From: a virus | Lineage: Duplodnaviria > Heunggongvirae > Uroviricota > Caudoviricetes | Length of the DNA stretch: 39,646 nucleotides | IMG/VR virus record: IMGVR_UViG_3300011827_000030 | Span: 1-39,646 of that record | Strand: one strand, 5' to 3' | In this document: one piece after another, positions 1-14,678 of the stretch | Numbering within the stretch: the first letter of the stretch is position 1 | How the letters are laid out: the number at the start of each line of letters is the position of its first letter | Notes under the pieces: generated by a model | Seen by the model: the letters and a program-made list of their open reading frames with translations, nothing else | Told to the model about the DNA's origin: nothing | The model's database searches: none | Program-made: the position numbers and the translations under genes

Positions 1-1053
1 TTACGGGGTAATGCCAACCGCTGCCGCCACTTTGTCGCCACTTGGCAGCGTTGCCAGAGGATTGAAACGGAGCGCCGTTTCCAGATGATCCGGTGCCAGA
101 TGTGCGTAACGCATAGTCATTTTTATATCGTGGTGTCCGAGAATTTTTTGTAAGGCCAGAATGTTTCCACCCGACATCATGAAGTGCGCCGCAAACGTAT
201 GGCGCAGAACGTGTGTGAGTTGACCGCGAGGGAGCACGATAGACGTTTTTTCCATCACTGATAAAAATTGAAAATAGCAGTCTGTGAAGAAATTGAACCC
301 ATCAAGCGCCATGATCTCTTCGTAAAGCTCTTTACTGATAGGGATGCTTCTGTTTTTCTTCCCCTTCGTTCTGACAAAGGTAATTCGGTATTTGGTCACC
401 TGTGAGCGAGTAAGATTTACGGCTTCACGCCAGCGTGCGCCTGTGCTTAAGCATATCTTAACTACCAGTGCCAGAATTGGGTCCTGACGTTTGCAATCAG
501 CCAGCAATTCAACAATCTGCTCATGGGTAAGCCATGCCATCTCTTTTTCTGCGATGGTGAATTTTCGCATGTTCTCCAGTGGGTTCGGATACGACCATTC
601 GCCCAGACGGGATAGTTCGCTAAAAACACTACTTAGATAGCTTTGCTCCAGGTTAATGGTGACCGGGCTTGCTCCTTTCTTCCATTTCTCGCTGAAGTAG
701 ATCTCGCCTGTCAGGCGTTTATCTCGATAGTGGGCAAACATTTTAGAGGTGAGATCGGTTGCAAGAGGATTGCCCAGAGCGTCAACCATCAACAGCAATT
801 TGTCATAGACATGCTGCCCAGCTGTCAGAGATTTACCATGTAGTTTGAACCATAGTTCAACCACGTCTTTCAGTGTTCGACGATCCACTGATTCACCCAG
901 CCAGGGCTTTGCTTCGGTTTCTTCCATCGTGTGACGCTCAAAAGCCAGAGCTTCGCCTTTGGTGGCGAATTGTTTACGCACACGACGTCCACTACGTCCG
1001 GCGGGGTAACATTCGCAAAGCCATTTTCCTGTGGTGAGTTTTCGTACTGCCAT
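1..1053 (-). CDS. int: Tyrosine-type site-specific integrase (P2/186 Int-like)
   Basis: 350-aa ORF; the C-terminal region (HVLRHTFAAHFMMSGGNILALQKILGHHDIKMTMRYAHL) shows the R..HxxR..Y catalytic signature of tyrosine recombinases; sits at the prophage end next to the att repeat. Confidence 0.9.
   Translation of the reverse strand: MAVRKLTTGKWLCECYPAGRSGRRVRKQFATKGEALAFERHTMEETEAKPWLGESVDRRTLKDVVELWFKLHGKSLTAGQHVYDKLLLMVDALGNPLATDLTSKMFAHYRDKRLTGEIYFSEKWKKGASPVTINLEQSYLSSVFSELSRLGEWSYPNPLENMRKFTIAEKEMAWLTHEQIVELLADCKRQDPILALVVKICLSTGARWREAVNLTRSQVTKYRITFVRTKGKKNRSIPISKELYEEIMALDGFNFFTDCYFQFLSVMEKTSIVLPRGQLTHVLRHTFAAHFMMSGGNILALQKILGHHDIKMTMRYAHLAPDHLETALRFNPLATLPSGDKVAAAVGITP
19..41. other. 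attL: Putative attL core (left copy of direct repeat CGCTGCCGCCA-Y-TTTGTCGCCA), lying inside the 3' end of int
   Basis: Sequence cgctgccgccactttgtcgccac at 19-41 recurs with one internal mismatch at 36821-36843, immediately after the ogr stop. Confidence 0.6.
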
Positions 1054-1078
1054 AAAAAAGCCCTCATATCAGAGGGCT
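1054..1078 (-). terminator. Hairpin GCCCTC-atatca-GAGGGC followed, on the minus strand, by a U6 tract; the 3' arm GAGGG also looks like the int ribosome-binding site
   Basis: Plus strand 1054-1078 aaaaaagccctcatatcagagggc; the minus-strand transcript reads GCCCUCUGAUAUGAGGGCUUUUUUAUG, ending at the int start codon (1053). Confidence 0.5.
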
Positions 1079-1136
1079 AAATTTAACTGTATATACAACC
1101 AGTAATCAATGTGTGATTACTATGAAACATACATTG

Positions 1137-2813
1137 CTAAGCAACATGCAGTTCATCGTTGGCGGAAGTTGCTGCTTTGCGCTCTTGCTCAATCGCCAGT
1201 GACTCTCTATATTCTTTCGCTTCCGCAAACATTGTCCATTGTGCGTTGATGTTCATATCTTCAATAACAGACTTAATTTCTTTAATATTTACGTTGAAAA
1301 ACTCTTTTCGTGAGTTAATTTTATTGACCTGTTTTTCGTTGAAGACTTTATGCAGATGATTTTCTAATGATGGTGCATCATCACTATAAATCATCGCATG
1401 AACATCGAACGAAAAAGGAACACTAGCATCACCGAGTTCACGAACACGATCAAGTGGTTCAAGGCGGCGTGTCATTCCAATTTTATATACATCTTCGCCA
1501 AATGAGCCAATATTACTAATTATATAAACGTGGCCTGATCTAGTTTGTTGAGCCATAGAAATAGCTCGTTGGTTTTTAGCTTCAGCTTCTTCATATTTTA
1601 ACTGTAGTTCAGCTATTTTTTGCTCTAAAGCTAAGCGTTGTTCTTCATTTGCAAGCATAAGCTCTTTTGTTGCTTTATTTATAGCTTGCTGAATAGCTTT
1701 CTCTTCTTTTTCAGCTTCTTTTATCGCTTTTTCATACTCCCTACGAGCTCTTTCCTCTTCACGAAGTTGTTCTTTAATCCTTCTTTGCTCTTCTTTTTCT
1801 TCGAGCATAATTTCATTAACTGCAACTCCCCATTTTAGCTCGTTGAGTCGAGCTTGAAGATAGATGTCACTTATTTTTGCGGACCTAAAGGCAGAACCAT
1901 TGTAATTTACAAGTTGAAACGCATCTTTTATCTCTTGGGAAAGTTTTCCAAAATTGTTGTGTTTGACTTTTGATAAAATACTGTCAACTCTTCCATTGAA
2001 GGCATCTAAAACAAAGTTGATAGCAGTATTACGCCTGTTTTGTTCAACATAATCACACGAAGCAGCTTTATTAGTTTTTATTAATAATTTTGTTAACTCC
2101 CTGGCTTTTTGTAATTCCTTACCTGCATCTGTAAACTCATAATTTTCTGCCAATTCATCGAGAACGCTACGGTTAGGGATGATCCATTCATCACCATAAC
2201 CTTCAATTTTATTTTTCATTGATTTGGCAACTGCTTCATATTTTTCTGCAAACTCTTTAGCTTCATATGCTGAACCAGCAATCTCTTTTGCTCTTTCTTC
2301 TGCATCGGAAATAATTTTCACTGCATTGTCATTAGCATTTGAGATCAGCTCATTTGCTTTACTATTGGCATTATCAAGACGTTCTTTAGCTTTCAGGCGT
2401 GCATCGCGAGCGTCTTTAGTAATTGCTATAGCTTCGCTATTAGCGTTGCTTATTTTTATCTGAGCTTGATAATTTGCTTCGTTTACTGTCTTAGCAGCCT
2501 TTATTTGGGCTTCTTCTATTTTTTGCCTGGCTATTGAGTCTGCATTTTTTATCTTATTCTCTGCTTCCATCACTGCGCTGTGCAATTCTACGTATTGCCA
2601 TAATGGCGCAGCTCGTCCTTCAAGCTCTGATAGATCTCGTACAGTCTGTGCTAATTCTTCTTGATTTTCTTTCAGTTGGTTGGAAAGGGCTATGTTGTTA
2701 GCTGTCAAGGTATTTATAGCCGCTTTATGTTTTTTGCTTTGCTTAAATAATATTACAGCTAGAATGGGGGCGAGAAATGCTAATAAGAATATAACGATGG
2801 AAAATGAATTCAT
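1137..2813 (-). CDS. Cargo protein: N-terminal transmembrane helix, long coiled coil, C-terminal T5orf172 (GIY-YIG-like) domain; candidate defence or lysogenic-conversion gene
   Basis: 558 aa; hydrophobic N-terminus SFSIVIFLLAFLAPILAVILF; K/E/A/Q-rich heptad-like stretches; C-terminal GHVYIISNIGSFGEDVYKIGMTRRLEPLDRVRELGDASVPFSFDVHAMIYSDDAPSLENHLHKVF...EFFNV matches the recalled T5orf172/DUF4041 pattern; gene is AT-rich relative to the phage backbone; RBS AAGGA precedes the ATG. Confidence 0.75.
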   Translation of the reverse strand: MNSFSIVIFLLAFLAPILAVILFKQSKKHKAAINTLTANNIALSNQLKENQEELAQTVRDLSELEGRAAPLWQYVELHSAVMEAENKIKNADSIARQKIEEAQIKAAKTVNEANYQAQIKISNANSEAIAITKDARDARLKAKERLDNANSKANELISNANDNAVKIISDAEERAKEIAGSAYEAKEFAEKYEAVAKSMKNKIEGYGDEWIIPNRSVLDELAENYEFTDAGKELQKARELTKLLIKTNKAASCDYVEQNRRNTAINFVLDAFNGRVDSILSKVKHNNFGKLSQEIKDAFQLVNYNGSAFRSAKISDIYLQARLNELKWGVAVNEIMLEEKEEQRRIKEQLREEERARREYEKAIKEAEKEEKAIQQAINKATKELMLANEEQRLALEQKIAELQLKYEEAEAKNQRAISMAQQTRSGHVYIISNIGSFGEDVYKIGMTRRLEPLDRVRELGDASVPFSFDVHAMIYSDDAPSLENHLHKVFNEKQVNKINSRKEFFNVNIKEIKSVIEDMNINAQWTMFAEAKEYRESLAIEQERKAATSANDELHVA

Positions 2814-2833: not shown

Positions 2834-3430
2834 TTAATTTGAAACTATTGTACTTCTTATACAAGCAACTACTTCAATATCAGAAAATGCACATTCAAAG
2901 CTATTCTCTGTACTTGTAATTTTAATCATACCTTTTGGAAGCTTTGTGATTTTTCGAATGGAATAGGTTCCGTCGATGTTGATTAACCAGTGCCCATCAA
3001 GTACTTCAGAAAATTTTTGATCACAAATGTATGTGACGAGCCCATCCTGAATAACAATTGGTGATGAAAGATTTGCAGGAAGAAATGATGAATCGAAGAC
3101 ATATGAACCATCTTCAATCATTTTGCCTGCGGTAAGGCGAAACTTGGCAAGCTCTTCTGTAGCTGCTGTCAGCGAGCTTTGCTTAAGGCCTTGCCCGGTG
3201 GTTAACCATTTCAGTGAGGTTCCTGTTTCAAGAGCACATTGGATTATCCAGTCTGCAGGAAACGTATCCCGCAAATACCTGTTCGCCAGAGTGCTTTTTG
3301 ATACTTCCAAGTGATCAGCTAAAGCCTGTCGTGTCGTAAAGCCATAAGCTTCGACTAATCGCTCAATCGCAGCCTTACCACCTTTATTGGGATTTATTTT
3401 GATCTCATTTGGGTACTTTGATGTTGACAT
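2834..3430 (-). CDS. cI: 186-type CI immunity repressor (CI-like HTH N-terminal domain)
   Basis: 198 aa; N-terminal ...STLANRYLRDTFPADWIIQCALETGTSLKWLTTGQG resembles the phage CI repressor HTH family; divergent from apl/cII across a promoter region. Confidence 0.8.
   Translation of the reverse strand: MSTSKYPNEIKINPNKGGKAAIERLVEAYGFTTRQALADHLEVSKSTLANRYLRDTFPADWIIQCALETGTSLKWLTTGQGLKQSSLTAATEELAKFRLTAGKMIEDGSYVFDSSFLPANLSSPIVIQDGLVTYICDQKFSEVLDGHWLINIDGTYSIRKITKLPKGMIKITSTENSFECAFSDIEVVACIRSTIVSN
3406..3418. repeat. Direct repeat CATTTGGGTACTT, copy 1 (candidate operator / Apl or CI binding site)
   Basis: Exact 13-mer repeated at 3465-3477 in the cI/apl switch region. Confidence 0.5.
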
Positions 3431-3452
3431 ATCTCTTTTGCGATCCTAGTAT
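3424..3452 (+). promoter_or_regulatory. Candidate early rightward promoter (pR-like): -35 TTGACA, 17-nt spacer, -10 TAGTAT
   Basis: TTGACA at 3424-3429 and TAGTAT at 3447-3452 with a 17-nt spacer, about 75 nt upstream of apl; overlaps the cI start codon. Confidence 0.55.
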
Positions 3453-3464
3453 CAATTTTGTCCC

Positions 3465-3477
3465 CATTTGGGTACTT
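3465..3477. repeat. Direct repeat CATTTGGGTACTT, copy 2
   Basis: Identical to 3406-3418. Confidence 0.5.
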
Positions 3478-3525
3478 GTCACGATTACTACAGGCTCACC
3501 ACAAGCCAATAGGAGATGTTGCATC

Positions 3526-3747
3526 ATGACCCCTAACATTTCAATAACTCTGAATACGCCACATGTCACAATTGAGCGTTATAGCGAACTTACTGGTCTT
3601 TCTATCGACACCATCAACGATATGCTGGCTGATGGTCGCATCCCTCGCCATCGCCTTCGGAAAGACAAGAAAAGAGAAAAGGTAATGATCAACCTTGCTG
3701 CTCTTACCGTTGATGCACTTACTGATTGCAATGTTGTATTCAACTAG
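3526..3747 (+). CDS. apl: Apl/Cox-type excisionase and transcriptional regulator
   Basis: 73-aa product [10 protein letters not shown]...; RBS AGGAGA at 3511-3516; first gene of the rightward early operon, divergent from cI as in phage 186. Confidence 0.7.
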
Positions 3748-3779
3748 TTCCATTTTGGGATACATCAGGGGTGTCGACT

Positions 3780-4289
3780 ATGTTTGATTACCAAGTTTCC
3801 AAACATCCACATTTTGACGAAGCCTGTCGTGCATTCGCACTGCGCCACAACCTGGTGCAACTGGCAGAACGTGCAGGCATGAATGTACAGATTCTGCGGA
3901 ACAAGCTGAACCCAGCTCAACCTCATTTATTAACCGCACCAGAAATCTGGTTGCTTACCGATCTGACTGAAGATTCAACGCTGGTAGATGGCTTTCTGGC
4001 ACAGATTCACTGCCTGCCATGTGTACCGATTAATGAGGTGGCAAAAGAGAAACTGCCGCATTATGTCATGAGTGCAACCGCAGAGATCGGGCGTGTTGCT
4101 GCAGGTGCGGTATCCGGCGATGTAAAAACCAGTGCAGGTCGTCGTGATGCTATCAGCAGCATTAACTCTGTAACACGGCTGATGGCGCTGGCCGCTGTTT
4201 CATTGCAGGCCCGTTTACAGGCTAATCCTGCGATGGCGAGTGCAGTTGATACCGTTACTGGCCTCGGTGCTTCATTCGGTTTGCTGTGA
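3780..4289 (+). CDS. cII: CII-like lysogeny establishment regulator (186 CII-like)
   Basis: 169-aa product starting [24 protein letters not shown]..., close to my recollection of 186 CII (same length, similar N-terminus). Confidence 0.8.
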
Positions 4290-4296
4290 GGTGCTT

Positions 4297-4497
4297 ATGC
4301 TGACGAAAGAACCATCATTTGCATCGCTGCTGGTAAAACAAAGCCCGGCAATGCACTACGGTCACGGCTGGATCATGGGGGAGGATGGTAAACGCTGGCA
4401 TCCGTGCCGTTCACAGGATGAATTGCTGGCAGAACTATCTACGAAAAAACGGGGGAACAAATGGCTATTGAAGGCGCTGCGGCAACTGTTCCATTAA
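4297..4497 (+). CDS. Small early protein (position of 186 fil / P2 orf78); function unknown
   Basis: 66-aa ORF from ATG 4297 with RBS GAGGTG upstream; positional analogy only. Confidence 0.45.
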   Translation: MLTKEPSFASLLVKQSPAMHYGHGWIMGEDGKRWHPCRSQDELLAELSTKKRGNKWLLKALRQLFH

Positions 4498-4802
4498 GCC
4501 CCGGTGAACGCCTGAATGGACTTAATCACATTGCGGAGTTAAGGGCGAAAGTTTTTGGCCTGAATATTGAGTCAGAGCTTGAGCGGTTTATTAAAGATAT
4601 GCGTGATCCACGGGATATCAATAATGAACAAAATAAACGAGCACTGGCTGCCATATTCTTTATGGCAAAAATTCCAGCTGAACGTCATAGCATCAGCATT
4701 AATGAGCTGACCACTGACGAAAAGCGGGAGCTGATTAAAGCAATGAATCATTTTCGTGCAGTGGTGAGCTTATTTCCCAGACGGCTAACCATGCCGAATT
4801 AA
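4461..4802 (+). CDS. Hypothetical early-operon protein
   Basis: 113-aa ORF in the early operon; overlaps the previous ORF's stop; no recognised motif. Confidence 0.55.
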   Translation: MAIEGAAATVPLSPGERLNGLNHIAELRAKVFGLNIESELERFIKDMRDPRDINNEQNKRALAAIFFMAKIPAERHSISINELTTDEKRELIKAMNHFRAVVSLFPRRLTMPN

Positions 4803-4869
4803 CCAACTAATGAAATTAATGGCGTAAACCCGCCGGGCATCCCTTTATCTAAATTCAGGAGAATTGATT

Positions 4870-5103
4870 ATGCGTAATATTGAAACCCTCACGACTAAAA
4901 CCGGACCGGATGACGCAGGGCTTAATATTTTACTGACAGAGGCTCGTCTGGAAGAACGCCGGGCAAGGGCTGAAGCAATGGCAGCTCGCCTTGATAGCCT
5001 GGCGTGTCATATCTCATCCAGTCAACTAAACCACGTGGAAGCTGCAGAACTGCTGCGTGTGACTGCTGAAGCAATCCAGAACGAAGCGCAGGAGATCCAC
5101 TAA
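4870..5103 (+). CDS. Hypothetical early-operon protein
   Basis: 77-aa ORF; AGGAGA RBS 8 nt upstream of ATG 4870. Confidence 0.55.
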   Translation: MRNIETLTTKTGPDDAGLNILLTEARLEERRARAEAMAARLDSLACHISSSQLNHVEAAELLRVTAEAIQNEAQEIH

Positions 5104-5330
5104 TGGCTGATGCAATGGATCTCGTACAGCAGCGCGTTGAAGAAGAACGCCAGCGCCATATCCGTGCTGCCCGTGCCAAAACGCCGGGCGTGTCCCGCGT
5201 GCTTTGCGTTGAGTGTGAAGCGCCAATTCCGCCAGCACGCCGCCGTGCCATTCCGGGTGTGCAGCTTTGCATTACATGTCAGGAAATCGCAGAGCTGAAA
5301 GGCAAACATTACAACGGAGGTGCTGTATGA
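5103..5330 (+). CDS. TraR/DksA-family C4 zinc-finger protein
   Basis: 75 aa with CxxC...CxxC (CVECEAPIPPARRRAIPGVQLCITCQ); start overlaps the preceding stop (TAATG). Confidence 0.8.
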   Translation: MADAMDLVQQRVEEERQRHIRAARAKTPGVSRVLCVECEAPIPPARRRAIPGVQLCITCQEIAELKGKHYNGGAV

Positions 5331-6184
5331 GCACCATCTTGAAATGGGCGGGAAATAAAACCGCCGTAATGTCCGAACTGAAAAAACATCTTCCTGCTGG
5401 TCCGCGACTAGTTGAACCTTTCGCGGGTTCCTGTGCTGTGATGATGGAGACGGATTATCCCTGCTATCTGGTTGCGGATATTAATCCTGATTTAATCAAC
5501 CTCTATAAAAAGGTTGCCGCTGATTGTGAATCGTTTATATCTCGCGCCAAAGTTTTATTTGAGATCGCAAACAGGGAGGTGGCTTATTACAACATAAGGC
5601 AGGAGTTTAATTACTCAACTGAAATTACTGATTTCATGAAAGCGGTATATTTCCTGTATCTCAATCGTCACGGTTACCGTGGGTTATGTCGCTATAACAA
5701 GAGCGGGCATTTCAACATTCCCTACGGTAATTATAAAAATCCGTATTTCCCTGAAAAAGAAATTCGCGCTTTTGCAGAAAAAGCCCAGCGAGCAACGTTT
5801 ATCTGCGCCAGCTTTGATGAAACGCTGGCGATGTTGAAGGCGGGGGATGTGGTGTATTGCGATCCGCCTTATGACGGTACGTTTTCCGGCTATCACGCTG
5901 ACGGCTTTACTGAAGATGACCAGTATCACCTGGCATCCGTTCTTGAACATCGGTCATCAGAAGGACATCCGGTCATTGTTTCTAACAGTGACACATCCCT
6001 GATCCGTTCGCTGTATCGCAATTTTACTCACCACTATATCAAGGTAAAACGCAGCATCGGCGTAGCAGCTGGTGAGAGTAAATCAGCAACAGAAATCATT
6101 GCTGTTTCCGGGCCGCGCTGCTGGGTGGGATTTGATTATTCGCGTGGCGTGGATAGTTCTGCCGTGTACGGAGTACGTGCATGA
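5327..6184 (+). CDS. dam: DNA adenine methyltransferase (Dam-like, GATC-type N6-adenine methyltransferase)
   Basis: N-terminal LKWAGNK and PFAGS motifs plus DPPY catalytic motif ([14 protein letters not shown]); RBS GGAGG; ATGA overlap with the upstream gene. Confidence 0.85.
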
Positions 6185-8595
6185 GCCATGCCGATATGAG
6201 CAACTGCTGCGGCTTTAACGAGGCTGCCGCATCGTTCTCATGGAACAGCCCGAAAAAGGCCATTAACCCTTATCTGGACCCGGCGGAAGTTGCGCCGGTT
6301 TCTGCGCTTTCAAACCTGATCACTCTGTACGCTGCCGATAACGAGCAGGAACAACTGCGCCGCGAGGCACTGAGTGATCAGGTCTGGGAGCGTTATTTCT
6401 TTAATGAATCCCGTGATCCTGTCCAACGCGAAATAGAGCAGGATAAGCTCATTAGCCGGGCAAAGTTGGCGCATGAGCAGCAGCGTTTTAACCCGGACAT
6501 GGTCATTCTGGCAGACGTCAGCGCCCAGCCCTCCCATATCAGCAAGCCGCTGATGCAACGTATTGAATACTTCAGCAGCCTGGGCAGGCCAAAGGCTTAT
6601 TCCCGCTATTTACGTGAGACGATTAAGCCATGTCTGGAACGACTGGAGCATGTACGCGACAGCCAGCTATCTGCATCTTTTCGTTTTATGGCAAGCCATG
6701 TAGGGCTGGACGGCCTGCTGATTCTGCCTGAAATGAGTCAGGATCAGGTGAAACGCCTGTCTACCCTTGTCGCTGCGCATATGAGCATGTGCCTTGATGC
6801 AGCTTGTGGTGATTTGTATGCCACCGATGACGTTAAGCCAGAAGAAATCCGCAAGACATGGGAAAAGGTGGCAGCGGAAACCCTGCGTCTGGATGTCATC
6901 CCGCCTGCGTTTGAGCAACTCCGTCGGAAAAGAAACCGCCGTAAACCCGTGCCCTATGAACTCATTCCGGGTTCGCTGGCGCGTATGTTGTGCGCCGACT
7001 GGTGGTACCGGAAATTATGGAAAATGCGTTGCGAATGGCGGGAAGAGCAGTTGCGTGCTGTCTGCCTGGTCAGCAAAAAAGCATCTCCCTATGTCAGCTA
7101 TGAAGCCGTGATGCATAAACGTGAGCAGCGCCGCAAGTCACTGGAGTTTTTCCGTTCTCATGAACTGGTGAACGAAGAGGGCGACACGCTGGATATGGAA
7201 GACGTGGTAAACGCCAGCAGCAGCAACCCGGCGCACCGCCGCAATGAGATGATGGCCTGTGTTAAAGGTCTGGAGCTTATCGCGGAAATGCGCGGTGACT
7301 GCGCCGTTTTCTACACCATTACCTGTCCGTCACGTTTCCATTCCACGCTCAATAACGGCAGACCAAACCCAACCTGGACAAATGCGACGGTAAGACAAAG
7401 CAGCGATTATCTGGTCGGCATGTTTGCTGCATTTCGTAAGGCGATGCACAAAGCCGGGTTGCGCTGGTATGGCGTGCGGGTGGCTGAGCCGCATCATGAC
7501 GGTACAGTTCACTGGCACCTGTTGTGTTTCATGCGCAAAAAAGACCGCCGCGCCATTACTGCATTGTTGCGTAAGTTTGCCATCCGTGAAGACCGCGAGG
7601 AACTGGGTAATAACACTGGTCCACGCTTTAAATCTGAGCTGATAAACCCGCGCAAAGGAACGCCGACAAGCTACATCGCGAAATACATCAGTAAGAACAT
7701 TGACGGGCGTGGTCTGGCTGGCGAGATCAGCAAGGAAACGGGTAAATCCCTGCGTGATAACGCTGAATACGTTAATGCCTGGGCGTCTCTGCATCGTGTT
7801 CAGCAATTCCGCTTCTTTGGTATTCCGGGACGTCAGGCTTACCGTGAACTTCGCTTGCTGGCTGGTCAGGCGGCAAGGCAACAGAGTGACAAAAAAGCAG
7901 GTGCGCCGGTACTGGATAACCCGCGTCTTGATGCCATTCTGGCTGCTGCTGATGCTGGTTGTTTTGCCACCTACATCATGAAGCAGGGCGGCGTACTGGT
8001 TCCCCGCAAATATCACCTCATCAGAACCGCTTATGAAATCAACGAAGAGCCAACCGCCTATGGCGATCACGGTATTCGTATTTATGGCATCTGGTCACCC
8101 ATTGCAGAGGGCAAGATCTGCACTCATGCAGTGAAGTGGAAAATGGTTCGTAAGGCCGTTGACGTTCAGGAGGCGGCAGCCGACCAGGGCGCTTGCGCCC
8201 CTTGGACTCGTGGCAATAACTATCCCCTTGCTGAAAATTTGAACCAACAGGAGAAAGATAAATCAGCTGATGGGGACACCAGAACGGACATTACCCGCAT
8301 GGATGACAAGGAGTTGCACGATTACTTGCACAGTATGAGCAAAAAAGAGCGCCGGGAACTGGCTGCAAGGTTACGCCTGGTTAAACCGAAACGGCGTAAA
8401 GACTACAAACAGCGAATTACAGACCATCAGCGACTGCAGCTCGTCTATGAGCTGAAGTCCAGAGGATTTGATGGTAGCGAGAAAGAGGTCGATTTACTCC
8501 TTCGCGGCGGCAGTATTCCGTCAGGAGCAGGCCTGCGTATCTTCTATCGGAACCAGCGTTTGCAGGAAGATGATAAGTGGCGGAACCTGTATTAA
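6181..8595 (+). CDS. A: Replication initiation protein A (rolling-circle nicking endonuclease, P2 gpA-like)
   Basis: 804 aa; HUH-type motif (GTVHWHLL) and active-site tyrosine motif ([14 protein letters not shown]) typical of P2 A; conserved position after the early genes. Confidence 0.9.
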
Positions 8596-8664
8596 TTACG
8601 CGGGTTAACAATTCGTGCTCTTAATAATACCAGGCATATCAGGCTGATGAACGTAAAAAAACGT

Positions 8665-8693
8665 TTTACATCAGTAATATTATTATATACTGT
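8665..8693 (+). promoter_or_regulatory. Candidate sigma70 promoter whose -10 overlaps the LexA box
   Basis: TTTACA at 8665-8670 with TATACT/TACTGT about 15-17 nt downstream. Confidence 0.4.
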
Positions 8694-8707
8694 AAATATA
8701 AACAGTG
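8688..8707. promoter_or_regulatory. LexA (SOS) box taCTGTaaatataaACAGtg
   Basis: Perfect CTGT-N8-ACAG with an AT-rich centre, about 40 nt upstream of the small ORF and dinI-like gene. Confidence 0.7.
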
Positions 8708-8747
8708 GTTGTCTATACAGTATTGATTTGGTGTCATAGGAGGAAAG

Positions 8748-8936
8748 ATGCAGGACTATTTTTTGGAGTCTTTGAAGCTCCAGCGCATTGATTTTTTTCT
8801 TAAGCTTGTAGCGGCTAGTGAGTGTAGTGATGAAGAGAAGGGGCTGGCTCTGCAGTGGGTTTCTGAACTGACAGATGAACTCATGGCAAAAATCAGAACC
8901 CACGAATACAACCGCTCAATGGATGTCATCAGCTGA
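8748..8936 (+). CDS. Small SOS-box-associated protein (possibly Tum-like antirepressor; unverified)
   Basis: 62-aa ORF with RBS AGGAGG immediately upstream, directly downstream of the LexA box; functional call is by analogy to the 186 SOS-controlled antirepressor, not by recognised sequence. Confidence 0.45.
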   Translation: MQDYFLESLKLQRIDFFLKLVAASECSDEEKGLALQWVSELTDELMAKIRTHEYNRSMDVIS

Positions 8937-8946
8937 GGTGACTTTT

Positions 8947-9180
8947 ATGCGCATTGAAATAATGATCGATAAAGAGCAGAAGATTAGCCAGTCTACACTG
9001 GACGCCCTTGAATCCGAGCTTTACCGCAATCTGCGCCCCCTGTATCCCAAAACGGTAATCCGTATCCGTAAAGGTAGCTCTAACGGTGTGGAACTGACCG
9101 GACTGCAACCGGACGAAGAAAGAAAACAAGTGATGAAAATTATGCAGAAGGTGTGGGAAGACGACAGCTGGCTGCATTAA
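8947..9180 (+). CDS. dinI: DinI-family protein
   Basis: 77 aa, MRIEIMIDKEQKISQSTLDALESELYRNLRPLYPKTVIRIRKGSSNGVELTGL...VWEDDSWL aligns by eye with E. coli DinI. Confidence 0.85.
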   Translation: MRIEIMIDKEQKISQSTLDALESELYRNLRPLYPKTVIRIRKGSSNGVELTGLQPDEERKQVMKIMQKVWEDDSWLH

Positions 9181-9624
9181 GAAATGTTGCCCCCAGGAGG
9201 ATTCATTCTAATGGGGGCTAGTTTGGGCAACGAGTGAAACGAGGCGTAAGGTGGGTAATCATTTTGATAAGTGATCGCCCACTTTGTGCCAAAAGCGGAC
9301 ATCGCAGATATGACAATATGTTAGTCAACCGCGATTAGATCAGTCAGTTGGAGATGGGGGGAAGTTACAAAAACTTGTCGTCCGCCATCTCCGACTACGG
9401 GTATTCTTAACTGTACATGCTCTTTCAATCGATGATTTTTGAGTAAGTGACTAACCTATTGTTTTGATAGTAATTAAACGTATAAACGTGCGGAGTTAAT
9501 TTGAAAGTTATGTGTCTATGTTTGACAAGCAAAATTTTAAAGATTGGTTTTATCCACAGGTAATTTATGCTATTAATAGCCTCAAGCCCTGTAATTATTT
9601 TTATTTAAATGGATAAATTTGAAA

Positions 9625-11745
9625 ATGAGTACATATCATAATGATCAGCCAATACTAGGTGGTCAAAATGACCCCGATTTATTAAACAGGCTCGATTTTG
9701 CAAATCACTTGGCAAATATTCTACTATTAAATCACAATGATGATTGCCTTACTGTATCTATAGAGGCAGAGTGGGGATATGGTAAAACGTCAGTGATAAA
9801 TCTTATAAAAGGTGCTTTGAATGAAAAGGAGTTCTTACCAATAATAATAGAATATAATCCATGGCTGGCCGGTCAACCTGAATCCTTGATTCAGGATTTT
9901 TTATTACAGTTCTCTTCACAACTAAATATTAAAGACAATTCAAAAGCTGCTTTGGAAGCTTCAAAAGAATTAATTGCATACTCCAATCTCTTCAGTGTAG
10001 CAAAACTTATTCCAGGGACAGAACCTTGGGCATCTATCATAGAAAAAGTCCTCTCTAATTTTGGGAGTGCTACTAAAAAGATTGCTGAATTAAAAAAACT
10101 GGATCTTTTAGGTAGAAAAAAACAAGTAGAGAAGGCAATAAAAAAAATAAAAAATCCTATTGTGGTAATAATTGATGATTTTGATCGATTGACTCCTACA
10201 GAAACTTTTCAAGTTTTACGATTGGTTAAAGCAGTTGCAGATTTCTCAGGAACTTCTTTTTTACTTGCATTTGATCCTAATTATTTGATTTCTGTGCTTG
10301 ATAAAAATAATATCGTCAATTCTTCGGAGTATCTTAATAAAATTGTTCAACTTCGAGTCCCACTTCCTGTAATCTCAGAAAGGGGTATGAATGAACTTGC
10401 AAATGCAGAACTGGAAAAGATAGCTAATAAATCTTTAACTGACAGATTCGAAAGTGATCAAGAAAGACTAAGCTGGATTTATCATAATTATTTTAAAAAA
10501 CTAATTAAGAATCCGAGAGAGTTAAAAAGATTTTTTAACCATTTGAGATTCGTTTTAGAGCAAATTGAAGGGCAGGTATGTTTTTCTGATCTCTTTGCTT
10601 TATCTCTGGTTGCCACTAAATCGAGTTTGGTATACGAGCATATTAAAAGCACACCAGAGGCATATATAGGGAAGAGATTCACTAATGATGGCCTTTTGAT
10701 GGATAAACCTCAAGATATTGTGGATAGATTTAGTGATGAGCGAAATAAGAAACTGAGTAATTTTTCTGATCAAGAGCGTTCAGTGATGCAGGAACTCTTA
10801 GGAGATATTTTCCCACTTCTACAGTCAAGCGGGTATTCTCATTATGGGGTTTCTGATCCCGATACAGCAGGAAGGGTTTCTGCACCACAAAGGCTTCATA
10901 TTGCGTTTCATTATAAAACTCCAGCAGGGTATATTTCTGATCATGATATTATCAGTTTCATTAATGGAGATGTTAAAAGAAACGAATTTCTAAGAGATGT
11001 GCTCTCGCAAAATGCAGAAGAAAGATTTTTTGAAATGATGAATAATTATTCGAGTTATTGTAAGGATAATAGTTTTGAAATATTAACGTGTATTTATGAT
11101 ACTTTTCTGTTTTCTCAAGAATTGAAATCCTCATTGGAAAGAAACTATGGTTTTTTGACAAAAGATCTTTATAGAAGGATGAATTGGCTCACTAATAAGG
11201 TAATATCTGAAAGTGATGATAAATATGGGTTAATAAAGGGGGTTGTAGGTAGGCATGAGAATGCGCCACTTGGTGCAGACGTATTATGCCAAGCTCGTAA
11301 ACAGATTCAAAATGGATGGAATGACAAAATATGGGTTAGTATTGAAGAATTGGCTGAACTTGAAGGTATCTTTCAACAGGTGGCTATTAAAGTTTTAAGT
11401 GATAAAATATATTTTGATTATCATCTTGAATCTCATATATTTTTCGAATTAAAGAGAGTTTCATCTCAATTTACATCAGAGTTTATTGCTTCTGTATTAT
11501 CAAGTGATGGCCTGATTAGGATGTGTGAGATTATTGGTGAAACAGGTAGTGATTCAACAAATGGCCCTTTTTTTAAGTTTGATGAAATTTACTTCGGGGA
11601 AATACTTGATGTGAATGAACTTCGAAATAAAGCGAAAAATTTAGATTTTTCAATTTATCCCACACGCATTCAAGCTGTACTTAAGAGTATTCTGGATGGA
11701 CAAAAATATTATTTGAGAGATGCAACTGTTGGTGAAGATTGGTAA
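9625..11745 (+). CDS. KAP-family P-loop NTPase (cargo, candidate defence gene)
   Basis: 706 aa from ATG 9625; Walker A EAEWGYGKTS (9766-9792) and Walker B hhhhDDFDR (IVVIIDDFDRLTPTE) with a long helical C-terminal region, the KAP NTPase signature; gene is AT-rich; no obvious TM helices. Confidence 0.8.
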   Translation: MSTYHNDQPILGGQNDPDLLNRLDFANHLANILLLNHNDDCLTVSIEAEWGYGKTSVINLIKGALNEKEFLPIIIEYNPWLAGQPESLIQDFLLQFSSQLNIKDNSKAALEASKELIAYSNLFSVAKLIPGTEPWASIIEKVLSNFGSATKKIAELKKLDLLGRKKQVEKAIKKIKNPIVVIIDDFDRLTPTETFQVLRLVKAVADFSGTSFLLAFDPNYLISVLDKNNIVNSSEYLNKIVQLRVPLPVISERGMNELANAELEKIANKSLTDRFESDQERLSWIYHNYFKKLIKNPRELKRFFNHLRFVLEQIEGQVCFSDLFALSLVATKSSLVYEHIKSTPEAYIGKRFTNDGLLMDKPQDIVDRFSDERNKKLSNFSDQERSVMQELLGDIFPLLQSSGYSHYGVSDPDTAGRVSAPQRLHIAFHYKTPAGYISDHDIISFINGDVKRNEFLRDVLSQNAEERFFEMMNNYSSYCKDNSFEILTCIYDTFLFSQELKSSLERNYGFLTKDLYRRMNWLTNKVISESDDKYGLIKGVVGRHENAPLGADVLCQARKQIQNGWNDKIWVSIEELAELEGIFQQVAIKVLSDKIYFDYHLESHIFFELKRVSSQFTSEFIASVLSSDGLIRMCEIIGETGSDSTNGPFFKFDEIYFGEILDVNELRNKAKNLDFSIYPTRIQAVLKSILDGQKYYLRDATVGEDW

Positions 11746-12341: not shown

Positions 12342-14678
12342 ATGATTGAAGAGGTAGTTATTGACAAGGTAGGCTCATATAATGGCCCTACGCAGCTTTT
12401 ACATGGACTTTCTAAATTTAACTATTTATATGGAGCTAATGGTGCAGGTAAAACAACTATAAGTAAAATTATTAATGACCCTGAACAATATCCAACATGT
12501 CCGATTAAATGGAAAAATAATATATCTTTAATAAGCTACGTATATAATAAAGATTTTGTTGAAAGAAATTTTAGTCAAGATAAAATTAAAGGTGTATTTA
12601 CCCTTGGTAGCGATCTTAAGGAGGATGAAGAGAAACTAATATCTCTTAAAGAAGAAAAAAATAAGCTAATGGAATCTATTATAGCAAAGGAAAAGTTAAT
12701 AGATGGTGGTGATAATGAATTAGGCGTTATTAAAAAAATCGAAGACCATGAAAAATCTTTTAAAGATTCATGTTGGAAGCAAAAAGTAAAACATGACAAT
12801 GTGTTCTCAAAGGCTTTTGAGGGATTAAGGAATAGTAGTGAAAAATTTAAAGCCAGAGTGTTGGCTGAGTATGAAAATAATACATCAGAAGTTTGCTCAA
12901 TAGCAGAGTTAATTGAGAAAGCAAAAATTGTTTTTTCTACTGAATTGACATCACATGTATCAATTACAATTCCATCCTTCAATGGGATAGATGATATTTT
13001 GAGTAGGGAAGTTTGGAGTGAGCGCATCCTAGGGAAAAAAGACGTTAGTGTTTCAGACTTAATTACAATGCTCAATAACAGTGATTGGGTTAAGGAGGGT
13101 TTAACATATTTCAGTAAATCTAATCCCAAGTGCCCATTCTGCCAGCAGGATGTAAATGATAATATATTTGATAATCTTTCATCATATTTTGATAAAACAT
13201 ATGAGTTAAAAAAAAGAGAAATCGATGCATTGGTTTTACAATATGAATATCAACTTAATAATATCTTGAAGGCGATAGATGATATAAGGGCGATTAAATC
13301 TCCATTCATAAATTATGAAGTGTTTGAGGATAAGGCTAAGATAGTATTATCTGAATTAAACAAGAATTTTGAATTGGCAAAAAATAAACGCAATTTTTTA
13401 AGTGAATCAGTTCATTTTAGTGACTTAAGTGAAGTTGTTGATGATTTTATTTCTTTTTTGAATGATTCAAATCTATTGATAGATAATAATAACAAAATAC
13501 ATAGTAATAGAAAGGTAGAGGCTAGTAATCTTTCTAAGCAGATATGGGCATATATCGTAAAGGTGGAGTTAAAGTCTGAAATAACTTCTTACCGTAGCAA
13601 ATCTGATAAATTTAATAGGACGTTACAAGGACTTAAATCTGGGATAGAAGAAGACAAAAAGAAGTTAATGTTAAATACTTCGGCTATTGAGGCAATTGAG
13701 TCTAATAAAACCAGTACTCTTCCAACTATTACAAAAATTAACAAGATTCTGGACTCTTATGGCTTCAAAAATTTTTACTTAAAACCCTCCGAAGATAAAA
13801 AGCATTATATGATAGTGAGAGATAGTGGAGATAATGCTCGTACAACCCTTAGTGAGGGAGAAAAGACATTTATCACTTTTTTGTACTTTTATAGCCTTGT
13901 TAGAGGGAGTGATAATGCATCAGGTGTTTTAGATGATCGTGTTGTAGTATTTGATGATCCAATTTCAAGTTTAGATAGTGATATTCTGTTTATTGTAAGT
14001 TCGTTGATTAAAGATTTAATGGAGGATGTTCGTAAGGATGAAGGAAATATTAAGCAAATTATATTCCTTACTCATAATATTTATTTTCATAAAGAGTTGA
14101 CTTTTAATACCAAAAGATCCGGTAATCAAGCAATGAAAGAGGAGACTTTTTGGATTGTAAGGAAAAAAGGGAAGGTTTCATATCTTGAAAAGTGCGAATC
14201 AAACCCAATAAAAACGTCTTATGATTTGCTCTGGTGCGAATTGAGAAGAACAGACATTAATAATAATACTATACAAAATACAATGCGAAGGATTTTGGAG
14301 AATTACTTTAAGATATTAGGTGGGATGGATATTAGGAAGCTTGAGTGTCATTTTTATGGTGATGAAAAAATCATATTTAAATCTTTAGTGTCATGGATTA
14401 ATGATGGTTCCCATTTTGCAGGTGATGATCTTTATATGAATTTAGATACGGAGTCTGTGCAAAAATATTTAATTGTTTTTCAGAAGATATTTGAATGTAG
14501 TGAGCATACTGCCCATTACAAAATGATGATGGGTGAGTTTTATAAACCGTTAAATGAGTCACTTCATCTACAAGATGAGTTTGATATAGATGATAGTGCG
14601 AATGATGAGTATGCTTCGTCAAAAATTGAGATAAAAGATGGAATAAACACATCTCTACATAGCAACACATATTTGTAA
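12342..14678 (+). CDS. RloC-like ABC/SMC-type ATPase with coiled-coil insert, CxxC zinc hook and PrrC-like C-terminal putative nuclease (cargo, candidate defence gene)
   Basis: 778 aa; Walker A GANGAGKTT (12432-12458); CPFC at 13131-13142 near the middle of the predicted coiled coil; signature-like LSEGEKT, Walker B VVVFDDP, H-loop FLTHN; C-terminal region contains RRILE and IRKLECH (14334-14351); RBS AGAGG; AT-rich. Confidence 0.75.
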   Translation: MIEEVVIDKVGSYNGPTQLLHGLSKFNYLYGANGAGKTTISKIINDPEQYPTCPIKWKNNISLISYVYNKDFVERNFSQDKIKGVFTLGSDLKEDEEKLISLKEEKNKLMESIIAKEKLIDGGDNELGVIKKIEDHEKSFKDSCWKQKVKHDNVFSKAFEGLRNSSEKFKARVLAEYENNTSEVCSIAELIEKAKIVFSTELTSHVSITIPSFNGIDDILSREVWSERILGKKDVSVSDLITMLNNSDWVKEGLTYFSKSNPKCPFCQQDVNDNIFDNLSSYFDKTYELKKREIDALVLQYEYQLNNILKAIDDIRAIKSPFINYEVFEDKAKIVLSELNKNFELAKNKRNFLSESVHFSDLSEVVDDFISFLNDSNLLIDNNNKIHSNRKVEASNLSKQIWAYIVKVELKSEITSYRSKSDKFNRTLQGLKSGIEEDKKKLMLNTSAIEAIESNKTSTLPTITKINKILDSYGFKNFYLKPSEDKKHYMIVRDSGDNARTTLSEGEKTFITFLYFYSLVRGSDNASGVLDDRVVVFDDPISSLDSDILFIVSSLIKDLMEDVRKDEGNIKQIIFLTHNIYFHKELTFNTKRSGNQAMKEETFWIVRKKGKVSYLEKCESNPIKTSYDLLWCELRRTDINNNTIQNTMRRILENYFKILGGMDIRKLECHFYGDEKIIFKSLVSWINDGSHFAGDDLYMNLDTESVQKYLIVFQKIFECSEHTAHYKMMMGEFYKPLNESLHLQDEFDIDDSANDEYASSKIEIKDGINTSLHSNTYL

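Follow-up and report, generated by a model that had tools for sequence, protein, structure and literature searches.

A probable p95-tum unit of the phage 186 kind, divided into two genes, in a Fels-2/186-type P2-like prophage

We read positions 8665-9180 of the window, the whole 39.6-kb stretch of DNA analysed here, as an SOS operon that represents the split-gene form of the p95-tum unit of phage 186, and we put the probability of this reading at roughly 0.8. The prophage in the window is P2-like (Peduoviridae) and of the Fels-2/186 type. The DNA-damage switch of such prophages has already been characterised, and in that respect the finding is not new. What we document here is the anatomy of the unit, its homology, the conservation of its LexA box and its identity with a gene that has been deleted experimentally in an orthologous prophage.

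Early region of the prophage

The early region of the window has the following order:

1-1053, minus strand, int, the first gene
between int and CI, a cargo gene
2834-3430, minus strand, 186-type CI immunity repressor (Pfam Phage_CI_repr, 8e-32, and Phage_CI_C, 4e-27)
next after CI, an Apl-like open reading frame
after the Apl-like frame, CII (Pfam Phage_CP76)
between CII and gpA, in this order, DUF5347, DUF2732, a TraR/DksA zinc-finger protein and a Dam-type methylase
6181-8595, replication protein gpA (Pfam Phage_GPA, 1.6e-127)

The SOS operon begins at 8665, directly 3' of the end of gpA (8595) and on the same strand, and closes the early region. Placement next to gene A is common to the window, 186, PSP3 and Fels-2. 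Its features are as follows:

8665-8670, plus strand, -35 hexamer TTTACA of the p95-equivalent promoter, assigned by comparison with the p95 annotation of phage 186
8688-8693, plus strand, -10 hexamer TACTGT, separated from the -35 by 17 nt and the same hexamer as the -10 of 186 p95
8688-8707, no strand assigned, predicted LexA operator (SOS box) TACTGTAAATATAAACAGTG, from its consensus match and its conservation
8703-8722, plus strand, second box or half-site CAGTGGTTGTCTATACAGTA, degenerate at 14/20 and sharing 5 nt with the first
8738-8743, plus strand, Shine-Dalgarno sequence AGGAGG of ORF62, with 4 nt between it and the start codon at 8748
8748-8936, plus strand, ORF62, predicted tumA-type antirepressor gene, 62 aa, from a family HMM, PHROG membership and identity with the DuoHS gene
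8925-8942, plus strand, small hairpin over the ORF62 stop codon and the Shine-Dalgarno sequence of the next gene, from a terminator-like scan
8947-9180, plus strand, DinI-family gene, putative tumB equivalent, 77 aa (Pfam PF06183, 1e-22)
9189-9218, plus strand, hairpin 3' of the DinI stop codon, with a centroid energy of -18.7 kcal/mol (z -1.9) and a poor U-tract

The SOS promoter and its LexA box

The promoter hexamers were assigned by their likeness to the annotated p95 of phage 186, which has TTCACA and TACTGT separated by 18 nt where the window has TTTACA and TACTGT separated by 17. A generic sigma-70 promoter scan made no call at 8665-8693, because TACTGT matches TATAAT at only three of six positions. 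The first-pass annotation had described a perfect LexA box lying over a candidate promoter. The placement stands, since the p95-like -10 hexamer falls inside 8688-8707 and is covered by the box. Perfection holds for the palindromic core, CTGT-N8-ACAG, but not for the full 20 positions, 17 of which agree with the 20-nt consensus TACTGTATATATATACAGTA. The CTGT and ACAG arms are intact and the spacer between them, AAATATAA, consists wholly of A and T, in keeping with the LexA operator of Gammaproteobacteria, a 20-bp palindrome TACTG(TA)5CAGTA with invariant CTG and CAG and an AT-rich spacer.

How easily could such a site arise by chance? The core CTGT-N8-ACAG occurs once in the 39.6-kb window, at this box. 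The bare palindrome alone is weak evidence because 0.39 chance occurrences are expected per window, and at least one was found in 33 of 100 shuffles. These figures, together with the silence of the generic promoter scan, are what speaks for a LexA-like palindrome that arose by chance in AT-rich DNA between genes, followed by a spurious ORF62. We give this reading next to no credence. No site scoring at least 17/20 appeared in any of 500 block-wise, composition-preserving shuffles, and comparison with other prophages has already refuted it. That comparison drew on 33 related loci from different Enterobacterales species, each encoding a relative of ORF62; L006, whose sequence ends early, and L034 were left out of the upstream scan. 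All 32 loci scanned with upstream DNA have, 5' of their ORF62 homologue, a CTG-N10-CAG box scoring 15-19/20, which is kept there while the intergenic flanks have diverged. In most of these loci TTTACA or TTCACA stands at a fixed distance from the box, and within the roughly 20-kb loci the box is almost always the sole such site. In the window, Fels-2 and the E. coli HS prophage DuoHS it is identical. Conservation appears to us a stronger argument than score that the box is real, and we infer that LexA binds at 8688-8707.

At the degenerate second site, the '...GGATATATATACAGT' element recurs in related loci with a long leader and is missing from those with a short one. A further candidate LexA site, near int, lies at 1085-1104.

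ORF62 and its relation to Tum

The 62-codon frame at 8748-8936 and its ribosome-binding site, AGGAGG at 8738-8743, follow the box as the first-pass annotation had described. The start region 'ataggagggaa(a/g)atg' is kept in related loci. Among 36 sequences of the ORF62 family, the variable sites at first, second and third codon positions number 25, 14 and 50 of 55, and codon differences comprise 10003 synonymous against 5052 nonsynonymous, or about 2:1. The frame antisense to ORF62 is interrupted by stops in relatives. This pattern shows ORF62 to be a real gene under purifying selection, and this, with the 484 homologues in its family, is further evidence against the spurious-frame reading considered above.

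What kind of protein does it encode? The AlphaFold2 model is a confident two-helix hairpin (pLDDT 89) whose Foldseek comparison with the PDB gave no match at E <=0.001, the hits being generic helical hairpins only and hence uninformative. Pfam gave no family for ORF62 at E values up to 0.01, and Rfam nothing credible between 8500 and 9700. Pairwise BLASTP of ORF62 against 186 Tum likewise returned no alignment. The relationship emerged from profiles. An HMM of the ORF62 family, built from 31 diverse members taken from phmmer relatives, matches residues 6-48 of 186 Tum with 35.2 bits (E 2e-9), where the best of 4000 shuffled decoys reached 8.3 bits; the invariant Trp37 and the conserved Cys26 and Glu40 of ORF62 fall in the Tum-aligned region. 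PHROG profiles give independent support: ORF62 is a member of phrog_698 and also matches phrog_8554 and phrog_1993 (the latter at 2e-3), while 186 Tum matches phrog_1993, phrog_8554 and phrog_698 (the last at 2.4e-5). PSP3 TumA differs from the window protein in belonging to phrog_1993; the ORF62 HMM gives it 3.9 bits, below significance, and the link between ORF62 and TumA rests on the PHROG cross-matches, a weak direct one (2e-3) and those that run through 186 Tum. Profile comparison shows ORF62 to be a homologue of the N-terminal, antirepressor-specific half of 186 Tum.

A phmmer search with ORF62 against 1.84 billion representatives returned 66 relatives, none of which is fused to a DinI domain, so that there is no direct fused intermediate among them besides 186 Tum itself.

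The DinI-like gene and the downstream border

The second gene of the unit had been called a DinI homologue from the first lines of inspection, and this is borne out over 8947-9180. The PF06183 match scores 80.7 bits against a cutoff of 24.2 and spans profile positions 1-63 of 63. A match to 1GHH, the structure of E. coli DinI, covers residues 1-75 (E 2.5e-6). The window protein is 77% identical to PSP3 TumB, 99% identical to Fels-2 STM2726.1 and 41% identical to residues 71-145 of 186 Tum. With ORF62 resembling the N-terminal half of Tum and the DinI-like protein its C-terminal half, the two window genes are the halves of tum encoded separately.

The two genes are closely packed, with a 10-nt gap between the ORF62 stop codon and the DinI ATG, and the DinI Shine-Dalgarno sequence (GAGG, 8935-8938) overlaps that stop codon. 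The small hairpin at 8925-8942 may couple translation of the two. About 12 of the 33 loci lack a DinI gene behind ORF62, and for that reason we regard the DinI-like product as accessory, probably tuning RecA or SOS activity.

Could the operon be a modulator of the host SOS response only, a DinI-type RecA modulator beside an unrelated small moron protein, with no part in the lysogenic switch? DinI proteins act on RecA filaments, RefSeq labels the pair 'hypothetical protein' and 'DinI-like family protein', and PHROGs lists the ORF62 family as of unknown function. We consider this very improbable. ORF62 is related by descent to Tum's N-terminal half and persists without DinI in the loci just mentioned, and precise deletion of a 98%-identical frame abolishes induction of DuoHS (PMC12055606).

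Just past the DinI stop codon, homology with most related phages stops and GC content falls to about 0.3. The hairpin at 9189-9218 is possibly a weak or partial terminator at this low-GC cargo border. Beyond it the window carries PifA-like and AAA_13 defence genes.

An orthologue with published experiments

The closest experimental counterpart of the unit is DuoHS of E. coli HS. In that prophage an in-frame deletion of tum abolishes mitomycin C-induced lysis and virion production, and a lexA(Ind-) background likewise abolishes both (PMC12055606). The study (Phollow, Nat Microbiol 2025) describes tum as inhibiting 'pro-lysogenic regulators' (PMC12055606). The gene that was deleted can be matched to ORF62 directly. 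The deletion primer NHR28, composed of ATAGGAGGAAAGATG followed by TGAGGTGACTTTTATGCGCATTG, joins the start codon of the 62-aa frame to its stop codon (PMC12055606), and each half has one exact match in the window, at 8736-8750 and 8934-8956. The protein of DuoHS 'tum' (ECHS_RS04495) is identical to ORF62 at 61 of 62 positions (98%). From 8596 to 9180, through promoter and DinI gene, mean column identity across the window, DuoHS and Fels-2 is 97%. DuoHS and the window are alike in promoter, LexA box, ribosome-binding site and gene order; they differ in the cargo after dinI, a 225-aa ORF of unknown function in DuoHS and the defence genes named above in the window. The DuoHS deletion-check primer NHR6 matches the start of the orf97-sized gene of Fels-2.

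The system is therefore already known to operate in a 98%-identical orthologue, with the dependence on SOS and the requirement for the small gene established by others on orthologues. The lexA(Ind-) result shows that DuoHS induction depends on SOS, which is distinct from binding of LexA at the box. Two earlier proposals fare well against these data. The suggestion that the 62-aa protein is an antirepressor is strengthened by its homology to the N-terminal half of Tum and by the DuoHS deletion, and the suggestion that control follows a 186-like, SOS-dependent logic (not a P2-like one) agrees with the p95-like promoter, a 186-type CI that gave no S24 peptidase match and the tum deletion and lexA(Ind-) results on the orthologue.

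Comparison with other systems

Splitting of tum has precedents in Fels-2 and PSP3, where antirepressor activity lies with the upstream gene (PMC3121763); for Fels-2 the split is attributed to Bunny et al. 2002, as cited in that paper. In Fels-2, STM2728 is 98% identical to ORF62 and follows gpA as in the window; STM2726.1 is the counterpart of the window DinI-like gene, and the Fels-2 record points to PSP3 TumB. Unlike the window, Fels-2 carries after dinI a 243-aa gene of the size of 186 orf97. PSP3 resembles the window in having a LexA box, a 60-aa tumA and a DinI-like tumB, all after gene A, and its record annotates tumA as 'similar to 5' end 186 tum; UV induction of prophage'. Its leader is shorter: box and start codon lie 20 nt apart, compared with 40 nt in the window.

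Phage 186 itself shares with the window the position after gene A, the -10 hexamer TACTGT inside the LexA site and a CI of the same type. It differs in that a single tum gene, with internal starts, encodes both halves as one protein of 146 aa, where the window has two genes, and in possessing orf97, which the window lacks. According to the 186 record, full-length Tum 'inhibits CI DNA binding', and a C-terminal 76-aa product only 'modulates SOS induction'. Repression of tum transcription by LexA and its induction by DNA damage have been shown for 186 (PMC7708051). Tum binds 186 CI reversibly and stoichiometrically, blocking operator binding (Shearwin 1998, as cited in PMC3121763 and PMC7708051). 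Direct Tum-CI binding has been demonstrated for 186 alone, and the N-terminal half of that Tum has diverged so far from ORF62 that BLASTP does not align the two.

The Gifsy-1/2/3 prophages of Salmonella carry LexA-repressed operons of dinI and a small antirepressor, dinI-gfoA/gftA (Lemire et al. 2011, PMC3121763), and these antirepressors act on several repressors in trans (PMC3121763). We considered a Gifsy-type operon for the window and set it aside on gene order and prophage type: the Gifsy operons begin with dinI and belong to lambdoid phages with unrelated repressors, whereas in the window the antirepressor gene comes first and the prophage is P2-like.

Pairing of ORF62 with CI

On what does ORF62 act? 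The CI encoded at 2834-3430 is its presumed target, by extension from the 186 paradigm. A search for a self-cleaving peptidase (S24) domain in the window CI found no match, so induction would be expected to proceed through an antirepressor. The window CI is 33% identical to that of 186 and 55% identical to that of DuoHS. Across the related loci, ORF62 is 71-100% identical in company with CIs 33-57% identical to that of the window. Copies identical to the window ORF62 accompany CIs with 98, 50, 45, 44 and 42% identity to it, and ORF62 proteins 98-100% identical occur in prophages whose CI is only 38-57% identical to that of the window. Over 378 locus pairs, median pairwise identity is 85% for ORF62, 64% for the CI N-terminal domain and 34% for the CI C-terminal domain, and the divergences of ORF62 and CI show no correlation over the same pairs (Spearman about 0) and so lend no support to direct contact. 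Cognate pairing with the window CI is thus an assumption, because the CIs have diverged and their divergence is uncorrelated with that of ORF62. Among the loci without a CI match, L014 was examined as a possible pairing with another repressor type and proved to be a prophage disrupted by a Mu-like insertion.

This missing covariation is also what could be expected if ORF62 induced the prophage without sequestering CI directly, its target being a host factor or a different conserved regulator that favours lysogeny. The wording of the DuoHS paper, which names only 'pro-lysogenic regulators' (PMC12055606), would fit such a target, as would L025 from Pantoea stewartii, where an ORF62-type gene lies beside a 186-like CI. 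We hold this to be unlikely. ORF62 is homologous to the very part of Tum needed for anti-CI activity, and the better conserved N-terminal domain of CI (64% against 34% for the C-terminal domain) offers a common surface, which would account for the absent covariation.

The same data bear on a further alternative, in which an intact module sits beside a recombined immunity region that it does not fit, so that ORF62 would be made after damage and the prophage not induced. The immunity region is a hot-spot for swaps, as the range of CIs accompanying identical ORF62 copies illustrates (98 to 42% identical to that of the window), and Klebsiella phage KP12 is the sole phage record that joins a window-type CI (98%) to the window ORF62 (100%). 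Such a mismatch strikes us as distinctly unlikely, given that near-identical ORF62 proteins are reported to work with the CIs of DuoHS and Fels-2, which are only 41% identical to each other overall and similar in their N-terminal domains. The N-terminal domain of the window CI is itself conserved, being 82% identical to that of L004 and 71% identical to that of Fels-2, against 28% for the C-terminal domain in the comparison with Fels-2.

Returning to CI as the presumed target, the simplest reading of these comparisons is that ORF62 targets a surface conserved in the DNA-binding domain of CI, largely independently of immunity type. The broader idea that the ORF62/TumA antirepressor is immunity-independent, one protein inactivating many heteroimmune CIs through a conserved N-terminal-domain surface, is tentative and we would not bet on it at even odds. 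If true, co-resident Fels-2-like prophages would be cross-induced in trans, as for the Gifsy phages, and immunity specificity would be uncoupled from inducibility.

Discussion

How would the switch work? In an undamaged lysogen, LexA on the box over the -10 hexamer would keep the promoter off. After DNA damage, activated RecA would provoke self-cleavage of LexA and the promoter would fire, giving a transcript for the 62-residue helical-hairpin protein, the homologue of the Tum N-terminal half, and for the DinI-like protein, the homologue of its C-terminal half. By analogy with 186, ORF62 would then bind the non-cleavable 186-type CI stoichiometrically and reversibly, taking it off its operators, and inactivation of CI would turn on the early lytic promoter. 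Direct contact between ORF62 and the window CI is thus predicted, and the DinI-like product would be dispensable for the switch.

The main value of the finding is practical, and it brings nothing conceptually new on SOS-controlled antirepression; the missing covariation between antirepressor and CI raises a modest question about specificity. Of 5426 complete E. coli genomes, 1125, about a fifth, carry the module of ORF62 and DinI; in them RefSeq calls ORF62 a 'hypothetical protein' and its partner a 'DinI-like family protein'. Despite a published knockout phenotype, the small gene thus remains hypothetical in RefSeq, of unknown function in PHROGs and without a Pfam match at E values up to 0.01, an annotation gap that the present assignment exposes. 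For this prophage the prediction is that it would be released, together with its defence cargo, by DNA-damaging agents such as mitomycin C and UV, and presumably fluoroquinolones.

Elements around the main LexA box

The main LexA box (8688-8707) overlaps a further, poorer match:

8703-8722, degenerate second LexA-like element (GTG-N10-CAG, 14/20), sharing 5 nt with the main box

The motif GGATATATATACAGT is present in all loci with a long leader between the box and the start codon of the ORF62 homologue (40 nt in the window) and is missing from short-leader loci such as 186 and PSP3. The 8703-8722 element may be a weak cooperative LexA site or a piece of the transcript start region.

Relatives of ORF62 and their loci

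Protein alignment showed that a glycine-rich C-terminal tail, '...K(N/S)PQxGGxxxGGxx(L/F)Q', is conserved in many distant relatives of the antirepressor-type protein ORF62 (for example, P0147, P0152, P0155, P0172, and P0181); in the same alignment, ORF62 and the Fels-2 and DuoHS proteins are without it. Two loci carrying an ORF62 relative were also noted. At L014, from Raoultella sp. BIGb0138, the prophage is interrupted at 3410-6714 by a Mu-like transposable phage, whose translations, judged by eye, include a 699-aa transposase A-like, a 319-aa B-like, and a Ner-like protein. This insertion cuts gpA short directly upstream of the SOS operon. The second locus is L025, from Pantoea stewartii ATCC 8199:

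3222-3725, CI
10001-10186, ORF62 homologue

Here the CI is 186-like, its two domains being 68% and 61% identical to those of 186 CI, yet the antirepressor gene is of the ORF62 type and not of the 186 Tum type.

Cargo genes

Whereas 186 carries orf97 after the SOS operon, the window has low-GC cargo at that hot-spot:

9619-11745, plus strand, KAP-family P-loop NTPase
12342-14678, plus strand, AAA_13 ATPase

The GC content of these genes is 0.29-0.37. The NTPase matches PifA in PADLOC (6e-64), and the ATPase matches the candidate defence system PDC-S06 (1.6e-266). Further cargo is inserted between cI and int:

1137-2813, minus strand, 558-aa DUF4041 + T5orf172/MUG113 protein

This gene (GC ~0.36) encodes a match to the PADLOC defence system PD-Lambda-1 (1e-119), while relatives hold other cargo at the same position: HS and BL21 have a 63-aa ORF there, and DH5alpha has a KAP NTPase.

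A candidate SOS-controlled int promoter

A second LexA-like box lies directly upstream of the int ATG (1053):

1085-1104, within 1056-1112, minus strand, second LexA-like box

Its sequence in the int sense is TACTGGTTGTATATACAGTT, which scores 16/20. The box is flanked by a -35-like TTGATT, for which relatives have TTGACA, and by TAAATT/TAAAAT as a -10-like element. Across eight E. coli prophages with different upstream cargo, among them HS DuoHS, D7, CFT073, BL21, and DH5alpha, the half-sites of the box are invariant and its central spacer is variable; no such box was seen near int in Fels-2 and the non-E. coli loci. A literature search demanding P2-like, LexA, integrase, SOS box, and prophage together found no paper.

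How might such a box act on int? It is followed by a terminator-like hairpin, AGCCCTC-N6-GAGGGCT plus T6, that ends at the int start codon and holds within its 3' arm the sole SD-like sequence, GAGGG. The 1085-1104 region could be an SOS-controlled int promoter with its transcript start inside the hairpin. A transcript from this candidate promoter could thereby escape a terminator that would shield int from upstream transcription.
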